Shown here piece by piece: positions 3,767-59,800 of a stretch of DNA of 64,000 bases (the stretch's first letter is position 1; every line of letters begins with the position of its first letter). The notes below the pieces were generated by a model that searched no databases, was not told the DNA's origin, and saw nothing but the letters and a program-made list of their open reading frames with translations. Made by a program: the position numbers and the translations under genes. Source of the DNA: Squalus acanthias (taxonomy: Eukaryota); the NCBI GenBank assembly GCA_030390025.1, contig CM059432.1, positions 92,444,001 to 92,508,000 of the forward strand, written 5' to 3'.

Positions 3767-4920
3767 CTAAATCATGCCATTATGAGTTGATCCCGTGCCT
3801 TCTGCACAGCATCTGCCCCTCAGGTTCCTCCTCCTCCTCCTCGTGGTCCACCTGCTCCTCTTCCTCATCCTCCTCTGAGAAGACTCTGCGCCTTGCTCCT
3901 CCTGCAGCTCCAATCCTCGCTGCTGTGCTATGTTGTCCAGAGTGCAGCACACGACAATCATTCTGGAGACCTTGGCTGGTGTGTACTGAAGGGCTCCTCC
4001 AGATCTGTCCAGGCATCTGAAGTGCATCTTCAGCATCCCAATTGCTTGCTCTATTACACATCTGGTTGTGATGTGGCTTTGATTTTCGCACTCCTCGGCC
4101 TCATTGCTTGGCCTCCTCAAGGGTGTCTTCAGCCACGTCTTCAGTGGATAGCTCTTGTATCCAAGCAGCCAGCCAGTATATCTGGTTGGAGGTGCGAAGA
4201 GCTGAGGGAGGGTGGACTGGTGCAGGACAAAAGAGTCATGACAGCTCCCTGGGAATCTGGCGCACACCTGAATGATGAGCTTTTTGTGGTTGCAGACGAG
4301 CTGCACATCGATGGAGTCGAAGCCCTTCCGGTTCACAAACACTCCTGGGTGATCTGGGGGTGCCTTGATGGCCACATGTGTGCAGTCGATGACACCCTGC
4401 ACCTGTGGAAAGCCAGCCAGAGCCGCAAACCCGAGCGCACGCTCAGTCACACTGGCTTCATCAGTGGCAAAGTGCACATAAGTGCCTGACTTGTGATACA
4501 TGGCATCGGTCACCTGCGTGATGCAATTGTGGACGGCTGACTGCAGGATTCTGCAAATGTCTGTTGCAGATCCCTGGAAGGAGCCTGAGGCAAAGAAGTT
4601 GAGGGCAGTGGTCACTTTGACAGCCACTGGTAATGCGTGTCCACCAGGTCCAGTTGGCAGCAGGTCTTCTTCCAGCAGACTACAAATGTCTGCCACAACC
4701 TGACACGATACCCTGAGCCTCCTGAGGCACTGCTGTTCAGTCATGTCCAGGAAGCTGATCCTCTGCCTGTATACCCTGTGTGTTGGGGGTATCGCCTCCA
4801 GCAAGTTGCACTCCTGTGCTCATCGACTCTCTCCTGTGGAGCAGCAGGTCAGTGAGGAGAAGGCTGCTGCTGTGGTGGCTGCTGTTGCTGCTGGTGTTGT
4901 TGGTGCTGGGGCTCATCTTG
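3767..4920 (-). pseudogene. Harbinger (HARBI1-like) DDE transposase, degenerate
   Basis: ORF 3767..4804: [45 protein letters not shown] (the GDxxY Asp is replaced by Tyr), [21 protein letters not shown]. Gln-rich N-terminal remnant at 4805-4920. Confidence 0.9.
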
Positions 4921-20545: not shown

Positions 20546-20755
20546 CCATGATGTGGAGATGCCGGTGTTGGACTGGGGTGGACAAACGTGAGAAGTTGCA
20601 CAACACCAGGTTATAGTCCAACAGTTTTATTTGAAATCACAAGCTTTCGGAGCGCTGCTCCTTCGTCAGGTGAAGTCTGACGAAGGAGCAGCGCTCCGAA
20701 AGCTTGTGATTTCAAATAAAACTGTTGGACTATAACCTGGTGTTGTGCGACTTCT
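20546..20755 (-). mobile_element. Penelope-derived fold-back mini-element with hammerhead cores, copy 1
   Basis: 79-bp inverted arms 20591-20669 and 20677-20755 with one mismatch. CTGACGA-stem-GAAA core in each arm. Flanked by CATATGTAA at 20537-45 and 20758-66. Confidence 0.75.
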
Positions 20756-20838
20756 TGCATATGTAAATGAGGGGCCTAATGCCTGTTTCAGGTTCCCTTG
20801 CCAGAATTGGTTGACGCTGAATGGGGAAGGAGCCATTC

Positions 20839-23269: not shown

Positions 23270-23912
23270 TGTTAGGGAGAAATTATTTCACTCCAGTCTG
23301 TTGATAGGTAAAAGCAAAAACAGTTTATTTAATATTCAGAGATCCCTGGGAGAAGCGTCACAGACCTTGCACAGCCTGGTCACTACAGCTTCTCGCCCTC
23401 CCGTTGTCAATGACAACCTTTTATTGAAGAGTTGTCCAATCACATAGTTACAAAATATCACATGATTACAAGTATGTCAATTCAAATTTAAACAATTAAT
23501 TTGTTATATTCTAAACAATTTATGTTAGCTCAAACTGAATCATTAATTCGTTATATTTCAATTCAAACTAAATAATTATGTCGATTCAAACTAAACAATT
23601 ATGTCGATTCAAACTAAACAATTATGTCGATTCAAACTAAACCATTAATTCGTTATATTCTTATCTCTGTCAGTTACAAACTAAAAACATTAATGACGTA
23701 TATATGCGGCTGTGTAGAGGCCCTGTCTGGCAATTACAGTCGTTCTATTATATTTTGGCCTTGGATGTTGCTAAGTATCACAACTCTCAACCAGGCCTTA
23801 TCTTCCACCTGGGCTCTTTATTCTATTTCATACAGAAACGAGAAATTATTTATTTTAATTTAACATGAGTTCAAATTAACTCCTTCACTCCCAACTCCTT
23901 CACTCCCCTTCA
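23270..23912 (-). repeat. ERV 3' LTR (~643 bp)
   Basis: On minus: PPT GAAAGGAGGGAA (23924-23913), then TGAAGGGG...CCCTAACA. AATAAA at ~23330-23325. Tandem repeats in U3. Confidence 0.75.
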
Positions 23913-24070
23913 TTCCCTCCTTTCGGTCCCGTATCAAATTAAAAATTCTGGTCAGGGATACCGACTTCTTTCCCGCATTTATCATCCCCGGATTATATCT
24001 GTGTTGATAAATTCGCCTCTCCCTTCTATCTATCCTTGGTGTCAGGTGTCTGTATGAAAAGAAAAGAGCT

Positions 24071-25007
24071 TTACATATAGATATCCTGTAGTGGCTGTTC
24101 ATTGCTTGGTTCAATAGTGACTACAGCAACCGGCATCATTCTGTCCATAGTTGCCTTACAACATGCATTTAAAATCATCAATGTAACACAGAATGCTATT
24201 CCAATTACAAGAATAATTATCAGTCCATGCATCAAATATGAAACCCATGATCCCCCAAACAACCATTCCCACCAGTTTGCTCCTGCGGTTTCGTGTAACT
24301 TCCGAACTTCCCTCTGTATGTGCTCAGCCAAATCAGTTATATTTTCTGAACTGTCAGGAATGTATGTACAGCACTCTGTCCCAATCAATGCACATGTTCC
24401 CCCCTTTTCTGCTAGGAGGTAATCAAGTGCCATTCGGTTCTGTAGCGTCACTGTCCTTATCGCTACCATCTCGGCGTTAATGTCTATTAGAGCTTCTGCT
24501 GTATCATTCCCAACCTGTTCTAAAACCTCTGCCAACAACCGTATCTCTTTAATAGCTCTCGCGACTCCATATGGGGGTAGATAGATCGCGAAGTATCTTT
24601 CAGCCTCATTAATTTCTCGTTTATAACGATAGGCTGGGTGTTCCTTGAGGTTTAGGCAGTGATGTACAAAGGGTACGACATACCCCAATGAAGTAAGTGT
24701 TATTATAGGCTTCATAACTACTCCATATGTTATTCATTATCATGATTTTACCCTTCCATGGCACCCCCCCACTGGTCATGTTTGGAATTGTACCGAGATT
24801 CCACGTCCCATACGTGAAGGTTGCACCACCGTACCCACTCCTGGTCACCTTTAATTCATATTTCTGCGCGCATTTACTCCAACCCAATGTGAAGCAAATC
24901 AGAATGATGCATAATGCCCAGACCAATCCCCTTACCCATTCCCATTCTGTATACGGTATCCACTCTTCCTCACTCCTTATACCCGGTATTTGTTTTGTTG
25001 CGTCCAT
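24071..25007 (-). pseudogene. env: Gamma-type retroviral env: shortened, frameshifted SU and open TM
   Basis: ORF 24621..25007 has a hydrophobic signal-like LVWALCIILICFTLGWS. ORF 24071..24715 has furin site RYKR, ISD LQNRMALDYLLAEKGG, CX6CC (CALIGTECC) and a membrane anchor. Confidence 0.9.
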
Positions 25008-25019
25008 TTCTACACTGGT

Positions 25020-25620
25020 GAAGGGTTATAGGTCTTAGCTGGGTCCAGTGTTTCCACCTTCCCATTCCCTTTATATCAATACAGGCACACGTGTCTCCAC
25101 TGATAAGGGCTTGATAAGGACCGGACCACCTTGGGGCAAACCCCTGCTTTGCAGGCAGGACCTTAACCATTACTTTCGTTCCTGCAGAGGGAACATTTGT
25201 TAACGCAGTCAAGTCTAAATTTTTATCCTTTTCTTCCTGTCTTTCTCTAACCTGCTGTCTCATTTCTTTTAACTGCTTGCTTAATTCAAGGACATACCGG
25301 CGGATCCTGTCCTGTAAGGGTCCTAGTTCCTCTCCTCCCGTTATAATTCCATAAGGGAGTTGCATTGCTCGCCCTGTCATTAATTCATAGGGAGATAAGC
25401 CTGTCGTTCGATTAGGGATAGCTCGTAATTTCATCAGGACTGCGGGCATTGGTAGGGGTCCTGTAAAGTCTATTTGTATCTTTCCCAGGGACCCCTTGGT
25501 CTTGGCTGATGGGCCATCTGTATTTTTACCGGCCATCCTGGATTATATTGTGCACACGTTAGGCACCTCTGACGGTATTTTGCTACATCCCTCCCTACAC
25601 CTGTACACTAGCTACCGCCT
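25020..25620 (-). pseudogene. pol: Retroviral integrase remnant with catalytic core deleted
   Basis: CLTCAQYN zinc-finger cysteines; IQIDFTGPLP fused directly to PAVLMKLRA..TGLSPYELMTGR; C-terminal PRWSGPYQ and WKHWTQ. Confidence 0.85.
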
Positions 25621-25624
25621 CTAT

Positions 25625-26335
25625 AACCCTTTCTTGATTTAATGCTTGTTGTGTTGCTAAATCTGCCGCTCTGTTTCCTTCCTGTTGAGGGGTTTCTATC
25701 TTCTGATGGGCTTTTATAGAAACATAGAAACATAGAAACTAGGAGCAGGAGTAGGCCATTCGGCCCGTCGTGCTTGCTCCACCATTCAATACGATCATGG
25801 CTGATCATCCAAATCCAGTACCCTGTCCCTGCTTTCCCACACAGAATCCCCATCGAGCCTGCACCGACACATATCCCACCCTATCCCCGTAACCCCACGT
25901 ATTTAATTCCCCCTAACATATCCCATCCTATCCCCGTAACCCCACATATTTAATCCCCCCCTAACACTAAGGGTCAATTTATCATAGCCAAATCAACCTA
26001 ACCCGCACATTTTTGGACTGTGGGAGGAAACCGGAGCACCCGGAGGAAACCCACGCAGACACGGGGAGAATGTGCAAACTCCACACAGACAGTCACCCGA
26101 GGCCAGATTCGAACCCGGGTCCCTGGCGCTGTGAGGCACCAGTGCTAACCACTATGCCACCGTGCCGCCCATCTTTACTACTGCTGCCCGTGTGGGAGCT
26201 TTCGCGGCTTCTAAAAGGGCTTCTATCTGTTGTTGATGTTTAATGTGGTCTCCACCTGTTGTGACAAACCCTCGTCTCCCCCAAGCTGTTATATAATCAT
26301 GTACTACCCCGAATGCATATCTGCTATCCGTTCCT
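25625..26335 (-). pseudogene. pol: Retroviral RNase H, split by an HE1 SINE
   Basis: TDSRYAFGVVHD..WGRRGF..AAVVK | IKAHQ..GNRAAD. The frame rejoins when 25718-26170 is removed. Confidence 0.85.
25718..26170 (-). mobile_element. HE1-type V-SINE
   Basis: tRNA head with A box TGGCATAGTGG and B box GGTTCGAATC; V-domain GGGTTTCCTCCGGGTGCTCCGGTTTCCTCCCAC; CR1 tail (TTTCTATG)n. Confidence 0.9.
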
Positions 26336-26734
26336 GGCTGCATGTTGTCAGTCTCTGTTCTAAGAATTAAAACCCATCTTTGAATCTAACAGTTATTTCT
26401 TACAATTCCCTTCTTTGAGAAGGAAATATCCTTATTGACTTCTCACAATCGGCTCTTGACTAATCTAGCTAGTTCTTATTGCTCTCTCAACTCGGGCGTT
26501 AGTTAGTAGGGATTCTTGAAGATTTCTCCCTTCCAACAGTCCATTCCTTGGAGGAGAAGGAGCAACCTCTGACCCCTTACTCAAATTCAATTCATTGTTC
26601 CGGTGTTCCAATTCTGCCCCGCCTGGGGTATCCTCTGTTTCTTCTATCTTTCCTGATGTTACCCCGCCTGGGGTCTCCTCTACATTGCTTTGGATCTTCT
26701 CTTTCGGTGTGCTCAATTAATTTGTTGGTGCTGG

Positions 26735-27900
26735 TTAGTCATAGGCATGAGTACCCAATTGGCTTATGTATCTTACTACATAGGTTACATATATCAAATA
26801 CACTATCATTACAAGTTGGAGAACTACCAGAGCGTGTGAAATAATACGAACGTAAGGGTGCGCTGATGTATTAAGCCCAATATCCCACCAGTGTGAGTTG
26901 TCCCCTATGCTGTCAATTTCAATATCTATTCTCGAATTGTCTTGCTCCAAAACATAAAAATGCTTTAGGGAGGAGTTCAGTCGCATCATGAGCTCACTGA
27001 AACCCTCAAACAACAGGGGAATGTCGTATCTGCGTATCCGAATTGTGCCACATAATTGTGTAACTTATACTTAAAAACGTGTTGGTTGATGGGACAGGTC
27101 CTGTTAGACCCATAAAGCATGGTAATTGCAGTAGTAGTGACACAGGAGGCACCACCAAAACCACCTCATACTGGATTCGCACTGGTTTTTCCCACGCTCT
27201 GTTACCTACAAAACACAATTATTACAGTCACAGTTAAATTCAGTCTTACAATCATTTCAAGCGACATTACAGTTTAACATCTAGTCAACAAATCATGGAC
27301 TTAAAAGATTCTCCAGATCTCTCTTTTACTCATATCCATCTTGTGGATAATTCTTACTAAACATGATTTCTCCTTAGCCCTCAATTGTCCCAATCCAGAT
27401 TCCATGTAACTCTCCACTTCAACTTCAATTTCAATCCCTCTAACAGGTACCAGTGTATTTAACTCTATTCTGATTGTTTCATTAATTAGATAGTTTCTCG
27501 ACGGAGTACGTGTCAATGCTTTAAAAGTTGTCTTGCTCTCCTGAACCACATTAGCCATTTCATGTTTTGCTGTTATCAAGTAACTGAGCATGTCTGAGAC
27601 CCGTTCTTCAGTGCAGATTCAACATACATTCCCAGATGGCAACTGCCTCACATGTAACAAATCGCATTTGCACACTCATATCGGTATCTCCACATCATGC
27701 CACATGTGCCTTTCTCAGGCCTTCAGGTATCTTATCAAAAGATTGTCTGGAGGTCTTTGTTCATCTTCCTCTGCATGGTCCCGATGTCTTGGATAGTGGC
27801 CAGGCTATCAAATTCAGGTTTCTTAAAAAGTTCATTATAGGCAGGGACACAAATGTCTCCAAGAGAAAGCTATCAATTTACTATTCTTAGCTACTCCTTC
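26735..27900 (-). pseudogene. Second env-like gene remnant (non-gamma, possibly F-type/lokiretrovirus-like)
   Basis: Frameshifted pieces: DIGTMQRKMNKDLQ, GFGGASCVTTT..YG..TCPI, then heptad LMMRLNSSLKHFYVLEQDNSRIDIEI, WW motif and TM helix IISHALVVLQLVMIVYLIYV. No ISD or CX6CC. Confidence 0.55.
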
Positions 27901-28689
27901 CTGACTTTCACTAAGAAGTTTGGAAAATTCTCAATTGGTGGTGTAATTCTCCTGTTTCTATCTCACCCTCAATCACTTCCTTTCTCCATTTTACACATCC
28001 TATTAATTACCATTCATATCTCATTCATGAGCCCTGGAGGAACTTTACTGTCCAGTACAATATTTAAGATTGAAAACATAGATCAAACATTCTCACTTGG
28101 TCCAAGTTATTAACACTTTTTATTTATCATTATTTTAGAGGATCTTTTATTTTCCCAAAAGTAACCCAATATATAGTGCCTGAGTTCATTTTGTCATTTC
28201 AAAATTATCCCGAAATCCAAACAGCAGTACTGTTGAACTGACAGGTTTTGTCAATGTTCAATTTCATTTCTATAACTTAAACAGCTGTCAGTGGAAAGGG
28301 TTAACTCCTTTGCAGGGGTTTTTTTAAGAAGGCGGAGCGAAACATTGTCAGACGCACGCAATTGCGTCATTTCACGTAACTGAACATGAACAGAAAAAAC
28401 AAAACAAACCAGTACATGCTTGTAGAAAACCATAAATTACATCATATTTCTTATTGTCCTTTCTTCAGATGCCTTTCCAAAATACTGTAAAAACATTGGA
28501 GAAAAATTAGTTTTTCACATTTAAGCAAATCAAATCAAACTGCTTTGGAAGATTTCACCATAGCAACCGCGACTCCAAGGTTAAATCTTAGACCGAAACT
28601 TAATCTTTGTTAAACAAACTTTTGTTGTTCTTCTCAGTTTTACACACCAGCTTAACTTAAATTGTAGTTCAAAGTTTTTTTTCAATTCT

Positions 28690-28925
28690 TGTGGCACAAT
28701 CTATTGCAGCCACACATCGTGGCATTGCCTTCGCTACTGGATCCCTCTTTAACTAACCGTTGAATCGGCTCTGCTTTCCCTGCAAAGTCTGATATAAAAT
28801 TCTTGTCTATCCCTGACAGTAAAGGCGAATTTCCCTTGTGATTCCTCTGCCAATGGTATGGACCAGAACCCGTTCTGTATCCAAGACTGTAAATATTTTA
28901 AAGTCTGGTTTCAGACCATTAAATA
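28690..28925 (-). pseudogene. pol: Retroviral reverse transcriptase/connection fragments
   Basis: Manual translation: FKIFTVLD.QNGFWSIPLAEESQGKFAFT, FISDFAGKAEPIQRLV and DPVAKAMPRC, joined by deletions. Confidence 0.75.
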
Positions 28926-29544
28926 TCTTATTCAATGTGGTCTACACAAATTTACACCAACCAGAATTTCACCGTGCACAATAAAAGTCTGGTTTTAATA
29001 GGTTAATTAACCTCAATAACTCCAATTCAATCTGGATCAAAATTTTCTTTTAAACTAACCAGTATCACTTGGAAAAGAAAGAAACCATAGCCACATTAAC
29101 AAAGAAACAATTACCCATGCCTTGTCCATCATTCAAAACAAGTCTTCAAAGGGTTAAACAGCTTTTAGCTCGCTGTACAAAAGAGTGGGTGGAGCCAAAA
29201 CAAAAATGACAGACACCTTTTTAAAGACAGACATTCAGACAAAAGAAATACTGCAACTCCTTAAACATTCACAGTCAGGAAAACTCTCACACTTTAACAC
29301 ACACTTTCACACAAACTTAGATCCCAGCATTCCTTTTAAGATTCCTTTCACTCAACAAATCTTGTGTTTTATTTGTCTCGGCACAGACATTAATAACTTC
29401 CATGTCGGTAAAACTTTAAATTTCTCTCTTTTTTCTTTTTACATAGGTGTCTCAGCAGCTTTCCTGGCTTTCCAAATCCTTTTTTTTTGTCTAAGCTGAG
29501 TTTTCAGATTGGTTAGCCTGCAAATTAGATCTTTTCCTTCTTTA

Positions 29545-29685
29545 TCTTTGGTTTGTCGGACGGGGAAAATCAGTTAAAGATACTGATGCTCCTGTATCAG
29601 CTAGCATTTCACACGATTGGCCCCCTAATAATGCTGCAACATAGACTCGGTTGTCCGAGCTTCCTGTGACTGGGGCCGCCTCCCG
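29545..29685 (-). pseudogene. pro: Retroviral aspartic protease, N-terminal half
   Basis: In frame after the gag TGA: REAAPVTGSSDNRVYVAALLGGQSCEMLADTGASVS, with the DTG catalytic motif. Confidence 0.85.
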
Positions 29686-30100
29686 TCATTGACTCTTTCC
29701 CTTAAACTTAAGATACTCAATAAAGTCCTTTCTTTCCTCCGGACTAAGATAAGTGCCCTGTGTCTGGTCCACCTCTCCTTTCTTCCAGCAGTTGTAAATC
29801 TGGTGTCCTAGCTTACCACAATAGTCACATCCCCCTTTCTTTCCACTCCTGCAATCCTTCGCCATATGTCCCACTTTTCCACAAGTATAACAGCTCCCCT
29901 GAATCCTCATCATTTCTGTTTCCTTTATCTGTCTTTTCCATTCGTTCTAGTGTGCTTTCTAACTCGGCTATTTCCTTTCTTGTCTATTTCCTCTATCTGT
30001 CAATTCTATCCGTTCTAGTGTGCTTTTTAACTCGGCTATTTTCCTTTCTTGTTCTTCCATCTTACTAGTTTGTGTCACTATTTTCTTTTCTTGTATAATG
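29686..30100 (-). pseudogene. gag: gag C-terminal/nucleocapsid remnant
   Basis: Two CCHC knuckles, CYTCGKVGHMAKDC and CDYCGKLGHQIYNC, in ORF 29686..29913. ~70-bp duplication at 29935-30060. Confidence 0.85.
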
Positions 30101-30159
30101 TATTAATATCCTCATCTAACTTTATCAGCATAACCCTCTCTTCTCTTCTCCTTCATATG

Positions 30160-32328: not shown

Positions 32329-32867
32329 TTTATTTTTAAAATTAAAAAATAGATACATTTTCGAGATGTGGGTGTCGCTGACAAGGCCAGCTTTTATTGC
32401 CCATCCCTAAGTTTAGGGTTGCTAACTCTGGTTGGATGTATACCTGGAGGTTTCATCACATGACTTTCTACCTCCATCCACCCCGCCGACAAACTCCTGT
32501 CATCGGTCATCCTCACTGCGCCCTCCCACGCCAATTGGACAGTACTCCAAGTGTGGTCTAACCAAGGTTCAATACAAGTTTAGCGTAACTTCCCTACTTT
32601 TCAATTCTATCCCTCTGGAAATAAACCCTCGTGCTTGGTTTGCTTTTTTTATGACGTTATTAACCTGAGTAATGAGTAATGAAGAGTTTGTTCACTTTAG
32701 CCCACGTTTCCAGGCTATTTTCATTGGCCCCGATGCTGTCATCCTCACAACCAGCAATGAAGCGGAGCGCTCTGAGTAACGGGGAGACCATCAGAACTCA
32801 GACAAGGCAGTTTGGTTGCACGCCACGACAGCCACAATACTGCACACGCGCGAACAGTGCAAAGGAG

Positions 32868-33078
32868 AAAAGTGAGAAGTCGCACAACACCAGGTTATAG
32901 TCCAACAGTTTTATTTGAAATCACAAGCTTTCGGAGCGCTGCTCCTTCATCAGGTCACCTGACGAAGGAGCAGCAGCTCCGAAAGCTTGTGATTTCAAAT
33001 AAAACTGTTGGACTATAACCTGGTGTTGTGCGACTTCTCACTTTTGTCCACCCCAGTCCAACACCGGCATCTCCGCAT
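32868..33078 (+). mobile_element. Penelope-derived fold-back mini-element with hammerhead cores, copy 2
   Basis: ~88-bp inverted arms centred at ~32956. 13-bp direct repeat CAGTGCAAAGGAG at 32855-67 and 33079-91. Near-identical to copy 1 in opposite orientation. Confidence 0.8.
32955..32992 (+). ncRNA. Minimal type I hammerhead ribozyme motif
   Basis: TCAC-CTGACGA-AGGAGC AGCA GCTCC-GAAA-GCTT-GTGA: stem I TCAC/GTGA, stem II GGAGC/GCTCC, palindromic AAGCTT. Confidence 0.65.
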
Positions 33079-33670
33079 CAGTGCAAAGGAGGATTCTTTC
33101 TTCCGAGTCATCAGCAGCAGCGCTCAGGAGACCAGTCGCCAATTCTGGTCAACTCCAGCCTAAAGTGGGAGGGTTAGGAACCCTCGTCACAAGTGCTGGA
33201 GATGTGACTGAGGCTGAGGAAGGCTCCATGACAAAATGGTTACAGAGTGGCAACCTTGCCTTAAGGTGATAATATATATTGTATTAAGTCTGTAATGTGG
33301 ATGGAACCTGCAGTAACTTGCCATTAATTTAGACTTGGTGTTGGTAGGGAAAATTAAATAATTAAGCCTAGATTTTCAGATTTCTGTTATTTTAATACCA
33401 GTTAAACTAAATGTATTAATACTCACATTAAAATAAAGTCAATTGGTAAATCTAGGCATTATTATCCAGCCATTAGCAATGTCAGATCTGACAGCACCTC
33501 AGTCCTGATACCCCAATGTTGCATACAGATTAGGCCTCGGTGAAGCATGTTTTCCTGTGTTAAAGGTGCTATATAAATGCAAGTTATTGTTGTTATCAGC
33601 TCTATTAAGTGCATTCAGCCATAACAAGTATGTTCATAGTGGTGGATGAATTAAGGTTTTACAATATGCT

Positions 33671-34106
33671 GGGCAACACGGTGGCATAGTGGTTAGCACT
33701 GGTGCCTCACAGCGCCAGAGACCCGGGTTCGAATCTGACCTCGGGTGACTGTCTGTGTGGAGTTTGCACATTCTCCCCGTGTCTGCGTGGGTTTCCTCCG
33801 GGTGCTCCGGTTTCCTCCCACAGTCCAAAAATGTGTGGGTTAGGTTGATTTGGCTATGATAAATTGACCCTTAGTGTTAGGGGGGATTAAATATGTGGGG
33901 TTATGGGGATAGGATGGGATATGTTAGGGGGAATTAAATACGTGGGGTTACGGGGGTAGGGTGGGATATGTGTACTGTGGGGATTAAAGCAGGGACAGGG
34001 TACTGGATTTGGATGATCAGCCATGATCGTATTGAATGGCGGAGCAGGCTCGACGGGCCGAATGGCCTACTCCTGCTCCTAGATTCTATGTTTCTATATG
34101 TTTCTA
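33671..34106 (+). mobile_element. HE1-type V-SINE, young full-length copy
   Basis: A and B boxes, V-domain, duplicated GT-rich segment and CR1 tail. Confidence 0.92.
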
Positions 34107-40053: not shown

Positions 40054-40480
40054 TAGAAACATAGAAACATAGAATCTAGGAGCAGGAGTAGGCCATTCGG
40101 CCCGTCGAGCCTGCTCCGCCATTCAATACGATCATGGCTGATCATCCAAATCCAGTACCCTGTCCCTGCTTTAATCCCCACAGTACACATATCCCACCCT
40201 ACCCCCGTAACCCCACGTATTTAATTCCCCCTAACATATCCCATCCTATCCCCATAACCCCACATATTTAATCCCCCCTAACACTAAGGGTCAATTTATC
40301 ATAGCCAAATCAACCTAACCCACACATTTTTGGACTGTGGGAGGAAACCGGAGCACCCGGAGGAAACCCACGCAGACACGGGGAGAATGTGCAAACTCCA
40401 CACAGACAGTCACCCGAGGTCAGATTCGAACCCGGGTCTCTGGCGCTGTGAGGCACCAGTGCTAACCACTATGCCACCGT
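40054..40480 (-). mobile_element. HE1-type V-SINE, young copy
   Basis: Almost identical reverse complement of 33671-34106. Confidence 0.92.
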
Positions 40481-42129
40481 ATTAAAAAGAATTGAACAAA
40501 TTTGGGTATCCGTATTTTCAACTTCAATCACTTCCATTAATAAACATTGTCTTCTTGAACCAGCACCCCCCCCCCCATGTAACATGGCAGAAATGCAGCA
40601 ATTATTCACAAGTGCAGAAAAACACGTACACAATTTGCGTCACTGAATTAAAAAGAAAAAGCAGGAAAAGCTATGATTTAACAGAAATAAACATTCAGCT
40701 TTCTTCCTGGACAGGAGAACCAATCAGATTGACTTGGAAATGTTTACTAATATGGTGATGTAAAGATGTTAATTTACGAATTTCGCTTCTAATGTTTTCC
40801 TCTCAAGCATTCTCCACAACACTAATCCCAGCTCTCATCACGAAAAGTGTTGAATTATTTTAGGTACTTCCCAATTAAATAGCGGGAAACAAACTTCATT
40901 GTACTCTCAATTTTGAATCTCCTATTTCAAACATTTATACCAAATTGAAATTGTACATTACCAGTTTAATCAAATATTTTTTGTGTCTTTCTCAATAAAC
41001 AAATAGTGGTTTCTTCTAAAGTAGCTTCCTGCAATTTTTATACATCATTACATAATTCTTGTTTCTATTAACACTCCACTAAACATTTAAGAGGAAATCT
41101 ATACATTATTCCTGGGACTTGTTAGGACTATAGAACGACAGACAAAATAAAATGGTTTGTGTTTTTCTCCTTTTTTGGTTCTCTTCCTAAACGTCTTAAT
41201 TTTTTTTTAAGTCAATAAAAAGTAATATGTAACTCCTACAAATCCTCCCCTGCCCTCTCCGTCCTCAACAGCATGGTTGCATGTTTGTGTAAAGCTACTC
41301 ACTTCACTCGATCGCTCAAAATCAATTATTGAGAAATTTCAATTTTAAAACGTTTTAAGTAATTCAGAGCCTCTTTAAAAGTGTTTGGACTTCAAGACCT
41401 GGTTGAAACTTGCTTAGATGAGGGAATATTGATTTTTGCTTGTTTCTTCTAAAATCATATTAGAAACTTAGGGGTAAAAAAGTGTTTTTAACACTCATTT
41501 TTTGTGAAAAGTTCATTAAAAATCTTTAAATTCTTTCAAGTCTCATTACAGCTTTGACAGAAGAAGTTGCTCCAAGTTTTTCTTTCCCTCTTCAACGCTG
41601 TTGTTAAACACACAACAAAAAAAATAATAAAATAAACTCTAATTCCAAATGGAGCTCAAATAAGAAAGCGAATGAAGTGGTTAAACTTCCTAAGAAGGCG
41701 GTGAGGTTATCTATCCCCGGCCTTGGCGATGAGTTAGGATCAGCTTTGGAGAAGTTGTTTCCTCTTTTTCTGCTGCCGTTCCCTCCGTCTCTCAGACTCT
41801 GAGGTACAAACAGGGGCACTAACTTCTTTCCCTTTCTCATAACATGATTTAAATAACACTGATAAACTCTTTCAAAAAGGGGACAACACTTGTCAAAATG
41901 AAACTGGAACTTACCGCAGGACATTCAACATCACTTTCCCGTATTTTTTTCCAGCTTTAAAAAACTTTCCGAATGTTTTTTTTTTAAATTTCACCACGGG
42001 CCTAAAACTTGTTTGCTTTAGCCTCCTTTCAGTGGCCATTGTACATGTGCTGCACCTCCATCTGTGTTATTCCAAAGTACGGCCGCCACTCAGTCCCCAG
42101 GAACGGACTACACGCGCCTCGAACCTCAC

Positions 42130-43604: not shown

Positions 43605-44790
43605 TTTTATTCGTTCATGGGATATGGGCATCACTGGCAAGGCCAGCATTTATTGCCCATCCTTAATTGCCCTTGACAAGGTGGTGGTGAGCCGCCTTCT
43701 TGAACCGCTGCAGGCCGCATGGTGATGGTACTCCCACAGTGCTGTTAGGGAGGGAGTTCCAGGATTTTGACCCAGCGATGATGAAGGAACGGCAATATAC
43801 TTCGAAGTCAGGATGGTGTGTGACTTGGAGGGGAACTTGGAGGTGGTGATGTTCCCATGCGCCTGCTGCCCTTGTCCTTCTAGGTGGTAGAGGTCGCGGG
43901 TTTGGAAGGTGTTGCTGAAGAAGCCTTGGCGAGTTGCTGCAGTGCATCTTGTAGATGGTACACACTGCAGCCACAGTACGCTGGTGGTGGAGGGAGTGAA
44001 TGTTTAAGGTAGTGGATGGGGTGCCAATCAAACGGGCTGCTTTGTCCTGGATGGTGTCGAACTTCTTGAGTGTTGTTGGAGCTGCACTCATCCAGGCAAG
44101 TGGAGAGTATTCCATCACACTCCTGACTTGTGCCTTGTAGGTGGTGTAAAGGCTTTGGGGAGTCAGGAGGTGAGACACTCGCCGCAGAATACCTAGCCTC
44201 TGACCAGCTCTTGTGGCCATAGTATTTACGTGGCTGGTCCAGTTAAATTTCCGGTCAATGGTGACCCCCAGGATGTTAAAGGTGGGGGATTCAGCGATGG
44301 TAATGCCGTTGAAAGTCAAGGGGCAGTGGTTAGACTCTCTCTTGTTGGAGATAGTCATTTCCTGGCACTTGTGTGGCGTGAATGTTACTTGCCACTTATC
44401 AGCCCAAGCCTGAACGTCGTCCAGGTCATGCTGCGTTCGGGCATGGACTGCCTCATTATCTGAGGAGTTGTGAATGGCGCTGAACACTGTGCAATCATCA
44501 GCAAATATCCCCACTTCTGACCTTATGATGGAGGGAAGGTCATTGATGAAGCAGCTGAAGATGGTTGGGCCTAGGACACTGCCCTGAGGAACTCCTGCAG
44601 CGATGTCCTGGGGCTGCAATGATTGACCTCCAACAACCACAACCATCTTCCTTTGTGCTAGGTATGACTCCAGCCAGTGGAGAGTTTTCCCCCTGATTCC
44701 CATTGACTTCAATTTTACTAGGGCTCCTTGATGGCATACTCAGTGAAATGCTGCCTAGATATCAAGGGCAGTCACTCTCACCTCAACCCT
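43605..44790 (-). mobile_element. CR1-Zenon-like LINE, 5'-truncated
   Basis: ORF 43663..44712: [30 protein letters not shown]. Confidence 0.85.
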
Positions 44791-56804: not shown

Positions 56805-59800
56805 TATACTCGTTCATGGGATGTGCGCGTCGCTGGCAAGGCCAACATTTATTGCTCATCCCTAGTCGCCCATGAGAAGGTGGTGGTCAGCTGCCCTCTT
56901 GAACGGCTGCAGTCCGTGTGGTGAAGGTACTCCCACAGTGCTGTTAGGGAGAGAGTTCCAGGATTTTGACCCAGCAATGATGAAGGAACGGCGATATACT
57001 TTCAAGTCAGGATGGTGTGTGACTTGGAGGGGAACTTGGAGGTGGTGGTGTTCCCATGCGCCTGCTGCCCTTGTCCTTCTAGGCGGTAGAGGTTGCGGGT
57101 TTGGGAGGTGCTGCCGAAGAAGCCTTGGCGAGTTGCAGCAGTGCATCTTGCAGATGGTACACACTGCAGCCACGGTACGCAGGTGGTGGAGGGAGTGAAT
57201 GTTTAAGGTGGTGGATGGGGTGCCAATCAAGCGGGCTGCTTTGTCTTGGATGGTGTTGAGCTTCTTGAGTGTTGTTGGAGCTGCACTCATCCAGGCAAGT
57301 GGAGAGTATTCCATCACACTCCTGACTTGTGCCTTGTAGATGGTGGAAAGGCTTTGGGGAGTCAGGAGGTGAGACACTTGCCGCAGAATACCCAGCCTTT
57401 GATCTGCTCTTGTTGCCACAGTATTTATGTGGCTGGTCCAGTTAAGTTTCTGGTCAATGGTAACTCCCAGAATATTGATGGTGGGGGATTCAGCGATGGG
57501 AATGCCATTGAATGTCAAGGGGTGGTGGTTAGACGCTCGTTTGTTGGAGATAGTCATTGCCTGGCACTTATGTGGCGTGAATGTTACCTGCCATTTATCA
57601 ACTCAAGCCTGAATGTCGTCCAGGTCTTGCTGTATGCAGGCATGGACTACTTCATTATCTGAGGAGTTGTGAATGGCACTCAACACTGTGCAGTCATCAG
57701 CGAACATCCCCACTTCTGACCTTATGATGGAGGGAAGGTCATTGATGAAGCAGCTGAAGATGGTTGGGCCTAGGACACTGCCCTGACGAACTCCTGCAGC
57801 GATGTCCTGGGGCTCTGATGATTGACCTCCAACCACCACAACCATCTTCCTTTGTGCTAGGTATGACTCCAGCCAGTGGAGAGTTTTTCCCCCGATTCCC
57901 ATTGACTGCAGTTTTACTAGGGCTCCTTGATGCCACACTCGGTCAAATGCTGCCTTGATATCAAGGGCAGTCACTCTCACCTCACCTCTGGAATTCAACT
58001 CTTTTGTCCATGTTTGGACCAAGGCTGTAATGAGGTCGGGAGCCGAGTGGTCCTGGCAGAACCCAAACTGGGCATCAGTGAGCAGGTTATTGGTGAGTAA
58101 GTGCTGCTTGATAGCACTGTCAACGACACCTTCCATCACTTTGCTGATGATTGAGAGTAGACTGATGGGGCGGTAATTGGCCGGGTTGGATTTGTCCTGC
58201 TTTTTGTGGACAGGACATACCTGGGCAGGTTTCCACATTGTCGGATAGATGCCAGTGTTGTAGCTGTACTGGAACAGCTTGGCTAGAGACGCGGCTAGTT
58301 CTGGAGCACAAATCTTCAGCACGACAGCCGGGATGTTGTCGGGGCCCACAGCTGTATCCAGTGGGCTCAGCCATTTCTTGATATCACGTGGAGTGAATCG
58401 AATTGGTTGAAGACTGGCTTCTACACTCACGTACTGGGCTCCATCATCATTGAGGATGGGGATATTCATGGAGCCTCCTCCTCCCATTAGTTGTTTAATG
58501 GTCCACCATCATTCACGACTGCATGTGGCAGGACTGCAGTGCTTTGATCTGATCCATTGATTGTGGGATCACTTAGCTCTGTCGATAGCATGCTGCTTCT
58601 GCTTTTTAGCATGCATGTAGTCCTGTGTTGCAGCTTCCCCAGGTTGGCACTGCAGTTTTAGGTACACCTGGTGCTGCTCCTGGCATGCTCTTCTACATTC
58701 CTTATTGAACGAGGGTTGGTCCCCTGGCTTGATGGTAATGGTAGAGTGAGGGATATGCCAGGCCATGAGGTTACAGATTGTGGTGGAATACAATTCTGCT
58801 GCTGCTGATGGCCCATAGCGCCTCATGAATGCCCAATTATGAGCTGCTAGATCTGTTCTGAATCTATCCCATTTAGCACAGTAGTAGTGCCACACAACAC
58901 GATGGAGGGTGTCCTCAGCGTAAAGGTGGGGCCTCGTCTCCACAATGACTGTGCGGTGGTCAATGCTACCAATGCTGTCATGGACAGATGCATCTGCGAC
59001 AGGTAGATTGGTGAGGACGAGGTCAAGTAAGTTTTTCCCTCGTGTTTGTTCTCTCACTACCAGTCGCAGACCCAGACTGGCAGTTATGTCCTTAAGGACT
59101 CGGCCAGCTCGGCCAGTAGTGGTGCTACCGAGCCACTCTTGGTGATGGACATTGAAGACCCCCACCCAGAGTACATTCTGTGCCCTTGCTACTCTCAGTG
59201 CTTCTTCCAAGTGGTGTTCAACATGGAGGAGTACTGATTCATCAGCTGAGGGAGGGCGGTAGGTGGTAATCAGCAGGAGGTTTCCTTGCCCATGTTTAAC
59301 CTGAAGCCAGGAGACTTCATGGGGTCCGGAGTCAATGTTGAGGGCACCCAAGGCCACTCCTTCCCGACTGTATACTACTGTGCCACCCCTGGTGGGTCTG
59401 TCCTGCCGGTGGGACAGGACATACCCAGGGATGATGATGGAGGAGTTTGGGACATTGGCTGAGAGGTATGATTCTGTGAGTATGACTCTGTCAGGCTGTT
59501 GCTTGACTAGTCTGTGGGACAGCTCTCCCAATTTTGGCACAAGTTCCCAGATGTTGGTGAGGAGGATTTTGCAGGGTCGACTGGGCTAGGTGTGCCATTG
59601 TCGTGTCCGTAGCCAGTGCTGAGGTCAATGCCGGGTGGTCTGTCCAGTTTTATTCTTATTGTTTTTCATAAACTGAGTCGCTTGCTAGGCCATTTCGGAG
59701 GGCAGTTAAGAGTCAACCACATTGCTGTGGGTCTGGAGTCACATATAGGCCAGACCAGGTAAGGACGGCAGATTTCCTTCCCTAAAGGACATTAGTGAAC

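Follow-up and report, generated by a model that had tools for sequence, protein, structure and literature searches.

Structure of the locus

The window (the whole stretch of 64,000 nucleotides that was analysed) is repeat-rich vertebrate DNA with SINE and LINE-like repeats throughout, and its minus strand carries the remains of two ERV families that are referred to here as element A and element B. As judged from contig depth in four sequencing runs, element A is the lower-abundance family and element B is far more abundant. The features are listed below, with sequencing runs denoted X3, X6, X8 and X18.

29686..30110, minus strand: gag 3′ part, assigned to element A; two CCHC knuckles at 29892-29851 and 29829-29788 (zf-CCHC, E 1.9e-07); depth at flank level
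29554..29685, minus strand: protease start with DTG motif at 29604-29584, in frame after the gag TGA stop (from translation)
29554..29567, no strand: approximate left junction, where protease gives way to element B (depth step at 29562 in X3 and 29567 in X18; protease-like reading stops at 29554)
26315..29560 (about), minus strand: element B, the internal region of a highly abundant retroviral repeat that lacks enzymes (depth in 4/4 runs)
28780..28905, minus strand: element B RT remnant, NGFWSIPLAEE at 28874-28842, an SnRV-clade-like motif by eye (RVT_1, E 0.022, below the cut-off)
26735..27960, minus strand: element B non-gamma env remnant, broken over three frames, with a heptad-like stretch, Cys motifs, a WW motif and a TM helix
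26405..26416, minus strand: element B PPT (from sequence)
26315..26404, minus strand: first 90 nt of the element B 3′ LTR, with TG start (from sequence, and from contigs leaving the window at 26395 and 26315)
26315..26331, minus strand: right junction, a 17-nt overlap of the element B LTR and the element A RNase H (TDSRYA), from contig ends
25640..26331, minus strand: element A RNase H, C-terminal half, split by a SINE (RNase_H, E 0.0028; KAH at 25714)
25712..26171, minus strand: young SINE within RNase H, 92-93% alike over 450 nt to the copies at 33670-34106 and 40054-40480
24970..25570, minus strand: element A integrase, core mostly missing (Integrase_H2C2, E 0.036; MLVIN_C, E 0.03)
24071..25007, minus strand: element A gamma-type env, with furin site RYKR at 24628-24617, ISD at 24445-24410, CX6CC at 24394-24368 and TM
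23913..23924, minus strand: element A PPT (from sequence)
23270..23912, minus strand: element A 3′ LTR, 643 nt, TG...CA (from sequence)

The middle of the element A pol is not pushed apart but replaced by ~3.2 kb of element B: missing are the end of protease, the RT and the beginning of RNase H. The replacing block consists of an eroded 5′ region, the RT remnant, the env remnant, the PPT and the LTR start. On its 5′ side, the gag part is truncated by a LINE-like fragment, and a 70-nt tandem duplication (89% identical) lies at 29915-30052 within its coiled-coil part. The protease start has no Pfam match; at the gag/protease boundary (29686-29688, minus strand) the TGA is followed by C and the protease stays in frame, so that this is a possible readthrough junction. 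No second copy of the element A LTR, i.e. a 5′ LTR, was found within the 64-kb window, and the copy that is present contains 23-nt tandem repeats at 23554-23668.

Other features of the surroundings are near-identical MITE-like palindromic elements that flank the provirus (20549-20764 and 32864-33080, with arms of 74-88 nt that are 94-99% complementary), two oppositely oriented SINE copies at 33675-34097 and 40061-40483 that are 100% identical along 423 nt and thus point to a very young family, and further long stop-free frames of 246-358 codons at 3767-4819, 43663-44739 and 56862-59585 (-).

The marks of a gamma-type Env are an ISD followed by CX6CC in the TM (PMC9967133), and element A carries both in this order, together with a TLV_coat match at E 5.9e-13. 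A preliminary description of this DNA had called this env normal: it is indeed gamma-type with an open TM, but its SU amounts to ~130 codons and is out of frame with the TM. Element A is dead, given the short and out-of-frame SU, the SINE in RNase H and the integrase, whose core is mostly missing (the motifs DFTGPLP and TTGLSPYEL are spaced by only ~15 codons). Its class appears mixed when motifs are compared by eye, the TM and integrase resembling CmiERV lineage I and the RNase H resembling WDSV and CmiERV lineage II.

Element B as a separate abundant family

Part of 26250-29950 is present in 20 of the 22 sequencing runs listed, and contig depth was compared over 26175-30110 in runs X3, X6, X18 and X8, from four organisms. 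In the 24 bins across 26307-29474, the median summed contig depth is 47.7 (X3), 20.7 (X6), 39.1 (X18) and 8.3 (X8) times the median in the 5 bins of the flanks, with bin 29475-29606, which is mixed, excluded; such depth is not equal to copy number, though the step is nonetheless sharp and common to the runs. In 4/4 runs even the shallowest bin of the block is deeper than any bin of the flanks. The depth step therefore identifies the block as a separate, very abundant element, and it sets the extent of the foreign DNA at about 26315-29560, RT remnant included. The second env, PPT and LTR start that had been described at 26335..28150 are thus real, but the block to which they belong reaches much further, to about 29560, and the RT fragment that had been read as pol of the host provirus (motif at 28874-28842) sits inside this high-depth block.

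Element B forms a single family that includes deletion variants; env is missing from some of these. Joints between its internal parts number 15 among those listed, with 163 further; the listed ones include 28039 to 29002 and 26650 to 27254, the latter present in 3/4 runs (X3 at depth 2955, X6 and X8) and deleting the TM-coding part of env. Among the X6 contigs listed, three match the element B PPT and LTR start but depart from the window at 26395, 10 nt into the LTR; they likely carry another LTR type next to the same internal region. Inside element B, tracts rich in pyrimidines that end in AG, at 27205, 28487 and 29170 (minus strand), resemble splice acceptors.

The envelope remnant of element B

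All landmarks previously described for the element B env, namely the Cys motif, heptad, WW motif, TM helix and PPT/LTR junction, are found at the positions given for them. The Cys motifs GFGGASCVTTT (27162-27130) and YGSNRTCPI (27114-27088) are followed on the minus strand by the WW motif HWWDIG (26893-26876) and by a TM helix at 26845-26783, within a stop-free stretch of 109 codons (27064-26738, minus strand). The best 21-residue Kyte-Doolittle mean of this helix is 2.24. A helix of at least 2.24 inside a stop-free stretch of at least 105 codons did not occur in any of 500 first-order Markov simulations, where the helix alone appeared in 5/500 and the long stop-free stretch alone in 27/500, so that the TM-bearing stretch is beyond chance. 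This TM-anchored ORF lies immediately upstream of a PPT and 3′ LTR, which is the position of a retroviral env. The earlier account also had RNase H following the PPT and LTR start after ~70 bp; the PPT (26416-26405) and the TGTAAG from 26404 are in place, but the LTR part is 90 nt long, with its last 17 nt shared with RNase H.

The remnant is decayed. Over 26405-28200, the three minus frames contain 49, 45 and 36 stops, with longest open stretches of 105, 70 and 109 codons. An F-type fusogen would have a furin site and, behind it, a hydrophobic fusion peptide; no hydrophobic stretch follows the RNRR near 27959 in its frame within this decayed region. The possibility that the env is dead throughout the family was considered and rejected: small length differences are seen within env between this copy and other members, and some of the breaks in this copy may accordingly be younger than the element B family.

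The element B env is not gamma-type. A scan of six frames of 26335-29560 found neither CX5-7CC nor an ISD-like motif, and the element A gamma TM gave a best tblastn match to the insert of E 1.0, both in agreement with the original observation that the remnant lacks ISD and CX6CC. Decay could have erased these marks, yet they are missing from a TM-proximal stretch in which 109 codons are still open. Hence, of the earlier proposal of one provirus with two envelope classes, the two unlike env types hold, whereas both envs and the pol are broken and only remnants are left. No intact product of either env can be made from this copy.

As to the kind of envelope, database comparisons returned little. 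Protein searches with single-frame pieces of the element B env, which are weak queries, gave 0 matches among 508 candidates, 56 candidates and 1.84 billion proteins; with such pieces Pfam, at E limits of 1 or 10, listed none of the fusion-protein families, and PDB searches gave 0, 1 and 1 matches, which is chance level. The ESM Atlas had no usable match for the 109-codon ORF, 0/10 ORFs were present in a cluster collection, and an AlphaFold single-sequence model of one 211-residue frame reached a pLDDT of 31.1. DNA and motif scans across collections of viral, metagenomic and prokaryotic sequences gave nothing or three chance loci, one (L002) with phage-like ORFs and two (L001 and L003) without a tblastx match, and no RNA run among those listed contains the insert. 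The likeness to paramyxo- and pneumovirus F proteins (PF00523) on which the preliminary description built thus appeared in none of these single-frame comparisons.

Family context nevertheless suggests that the element B env is probably of F-type descent and stems from an ERV of the SnRV clade (clade names of fish and amphibian ERVs follow PMC6001957). This leaning is based on the element B RT motif, which matches SnRV rows by a small margin over other rows, and on foamy Env, which shares the F core (PMC11468914). Lokiretroviruses are marked by an RT that groups as sister to the known retroviruses, and the SnRV clade by a pol phylogeny with snakehead retrovirus. Although only ~35 codons of the RT remain, a text search of the supplement of PMC7947760 finds its motif in SnRV rows and not in Loki rows. 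A lokiretroviral origin is therefore disfavoured, since GFWSI occurs three times in the supplement rows examined, all of them SnRV, and the host list of that source contains no cartilaginous fish (PMC7947760). The F-like Env of lokiretroviruses is likewise a non-gamma type I membrane protein in the env position, but no motif common to the element B remnant and the five Loki Envs compared was apparent by eye (PMC7947760).

The two junctions

At the right junction, the element B LTR and the element A RNase H overlap over 17 nt (26331-26315) that read TDSRYA in RNase H; this length is deduced from where alignments made at 80% likeness stop, rather than from a direct alignment of the letters of the two parents. 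Among the contigs listed, three in X3 and two in X6 track the window down to 26315 and then diverge. On the other side, an X6 contig of 649 nt (record 17), present at depth 18.4, aligns to 26331-26175, where 30 of its 157 letters differ, and has 179 unmatched letters upstream; it is an RNase H relative without the insert. No contig bridging the right junction was seen among the 32 listed of 12,473 pieces.

The left junction is bridged in another organism. Record 24 of X6 matches 29523-29908 with 23 other letters and accounts for a depth of 11.8 out of 15.1 at that place, and only about 31-44 of its letters, depending on where the junction is placed, are on the element B side. A de Bruijn contig starts in this manner where its path merges with an abundant one. 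The X6 contigs total 126 Mb and the longest has 16,783 nt, the size of a mitogenome. X6 is thus likely a low-coverage skim, in which case record 24 likely stands for several copies. The position of the depth step at this junction, near 29562-29567, is a rough estimate.

Whether gag and the protease start belong to element A or to a long form of element B bears on how many joins the locus contains. In X3 the depth of gag/PR (980) equals that of RNase H (962-1010), and one X18 contig, with unstated side lengths, joins gag (30024) to RNase H (26289); both favour element A, while the colinear gene order allows element B. We infer that the gag part is from element A.

Origin of the chimera

We lean towards the view that the locus is a dead chimera of elements A and B, formed when RT changed template from one co-packaged RNA to another. 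The original suggestion that recombination brought in the 3′ end of another retrovirus, here one with a non-gamma env, is supported by the separate high-depth family, by its own PPT and LTR start and by the 17-nt overlap at the junction. Copy-choice switching between co-packaged RNAs (PMC5131818, PMC10536682) fits a replaced part of pol, a short overlap and a landing in U3 near the RNA 3′ end. During minus-strand synthesis, the RT would leave the element A template in RNase H, land through the 17-nt match on the element B U3, near the 3′ end of the element B RNA, copy from there the element B PPT, env and eroded pol in turn, and return in protease to element A or to an already existing A/B hybrid RNA. 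The product would be without pol, and its later spread would need a helper. The 17-nt overlap indicates switching guided by microhomology at the right junction, where such short shared sequence is present; no overlap is visible at the left junction. Microhomology is equally a mark of deletion at the DNA level, which counts against template switching.

Such deletions are central to a rather unlikely alternative, in which element B integrated into the element A pol in host DNA and trimming then removed the B 5′ LTR, most of the 3′ LTR and part of the A pol, the right-hand deletion being guided by the 17-nt match. An element as abundant as B would be expected to strike other ERVs, and the locus has suffered other later damage (the SINE, the LINE truncation and the integrase and SU deletions), but two further deletions are required, and the left junction is found in another organism above background depth, which an event at one locus would produce only where the contig derives from the orthologous locus. 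We also give little weight to a chimera with a single crossover, where gag and the protease start come from a longer, rarer subfamily of element B and the sole join is that of the B LTR to the A RNase H, made by one template switch or by one deletion between neighbouring proviruses. The order of gag, PR, RT fragment, env, PPT and LTR is colinear with one provirus, most of the X6 gag/PR depth (11.8 of 15.1) continues into element B, and this family has many internal-deletion variants; against it stand the equal gag/PR and RNase H depth in X3, the X18 contig from gag to RNase H, and a gag/PR frame that is kept at 42% GC, where the 5′ part of element B is eroded and more AT-rich (36% GC). An assembly chimera of two repeats is very improbable. 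There are repeats on both sides and no spanning reads were seen at the right junction, but the left join recurs in a contig from an independent organism and the right join falls within the 17-nt overlap, which is shorter than what typically misleads an assembler.

Comparison with known systems

The closest precedent is SERV-K/MER11 of Old World monkeys, including the macaque, which likewise captured the env TM part, PPT and a partial LTR of another lineage, for which a double template switch aided by microhomology was proposed, and which carries a second PPT (PMC11379458). There, both parents are HERV-K betaretrovirus-like and share one env class, pol was kept because the foreign DNA sits between env and LTR, and spread is shown by 106 proviruses; here the env types are unlike, most of pol is replaced and spread is seen for one junction only (PMC11379458). 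In the template-switch capture described for LTR elements, part of an ORF is replaced by foreign RNA with short shared sequence at the switch point and the product is non-autonomous, as here, though the captured RNA is mostly host mRNA with a median overlap of 6 bp (PMC5131818), compared to another ERV and 17 nt at this locus.

CmiERV lineage I of the elephant shark, a member of the SnRV clade, has by eye gamma-type TM and integrase motifs near those of element A, a gag-TGA-pro layout like the one seen here and an RT motif, NGFWSIPL, like that of element B (PMC4422223). It differs in its single env and complete LTR pair, and its RNase H motif is unlike that of element A (PMC4422223).

Significance

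Env exchange has been described among fish and amphibian ERVs, where conflicts between pol and env trees indicate frequent swaps in fish retroviruses (bioRxiv 2021.11.23.469661). The junctions of such swaps are rarely seen, and the present locus likely preserves one, at base level, where two ERV families that differ in envelope type are joined. In the open-licence literature, as searched by title and start of abstract, no description of a single provirus with two different kinds of env was found. The kind of event is known; new are the combination of two unlike env types and the fact that a junction can be seen. The locus is thus likely the relic of retroviral recombination of an already known type and not a functional virus with two envelopes, and it provides no demonstration of a virus using two envelopes.

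A further, tentative reading, which we consider possible though on the whole doubtful, takes the locus as a single member of a helper-dependent ERV subfamily common to several cartilaginous fishes, with an F-type and a gamma-type env and two PPTs. If true, it would be a frozen intermediate of the envelope swap through which retroviruses of the SnRV clade came to have two unrelated fusogens, and it would prove that RNAs of F-env and gamma-env ERVs were packaged together. If the two-env form did spread, this would show that such intermediates can be mobilised.
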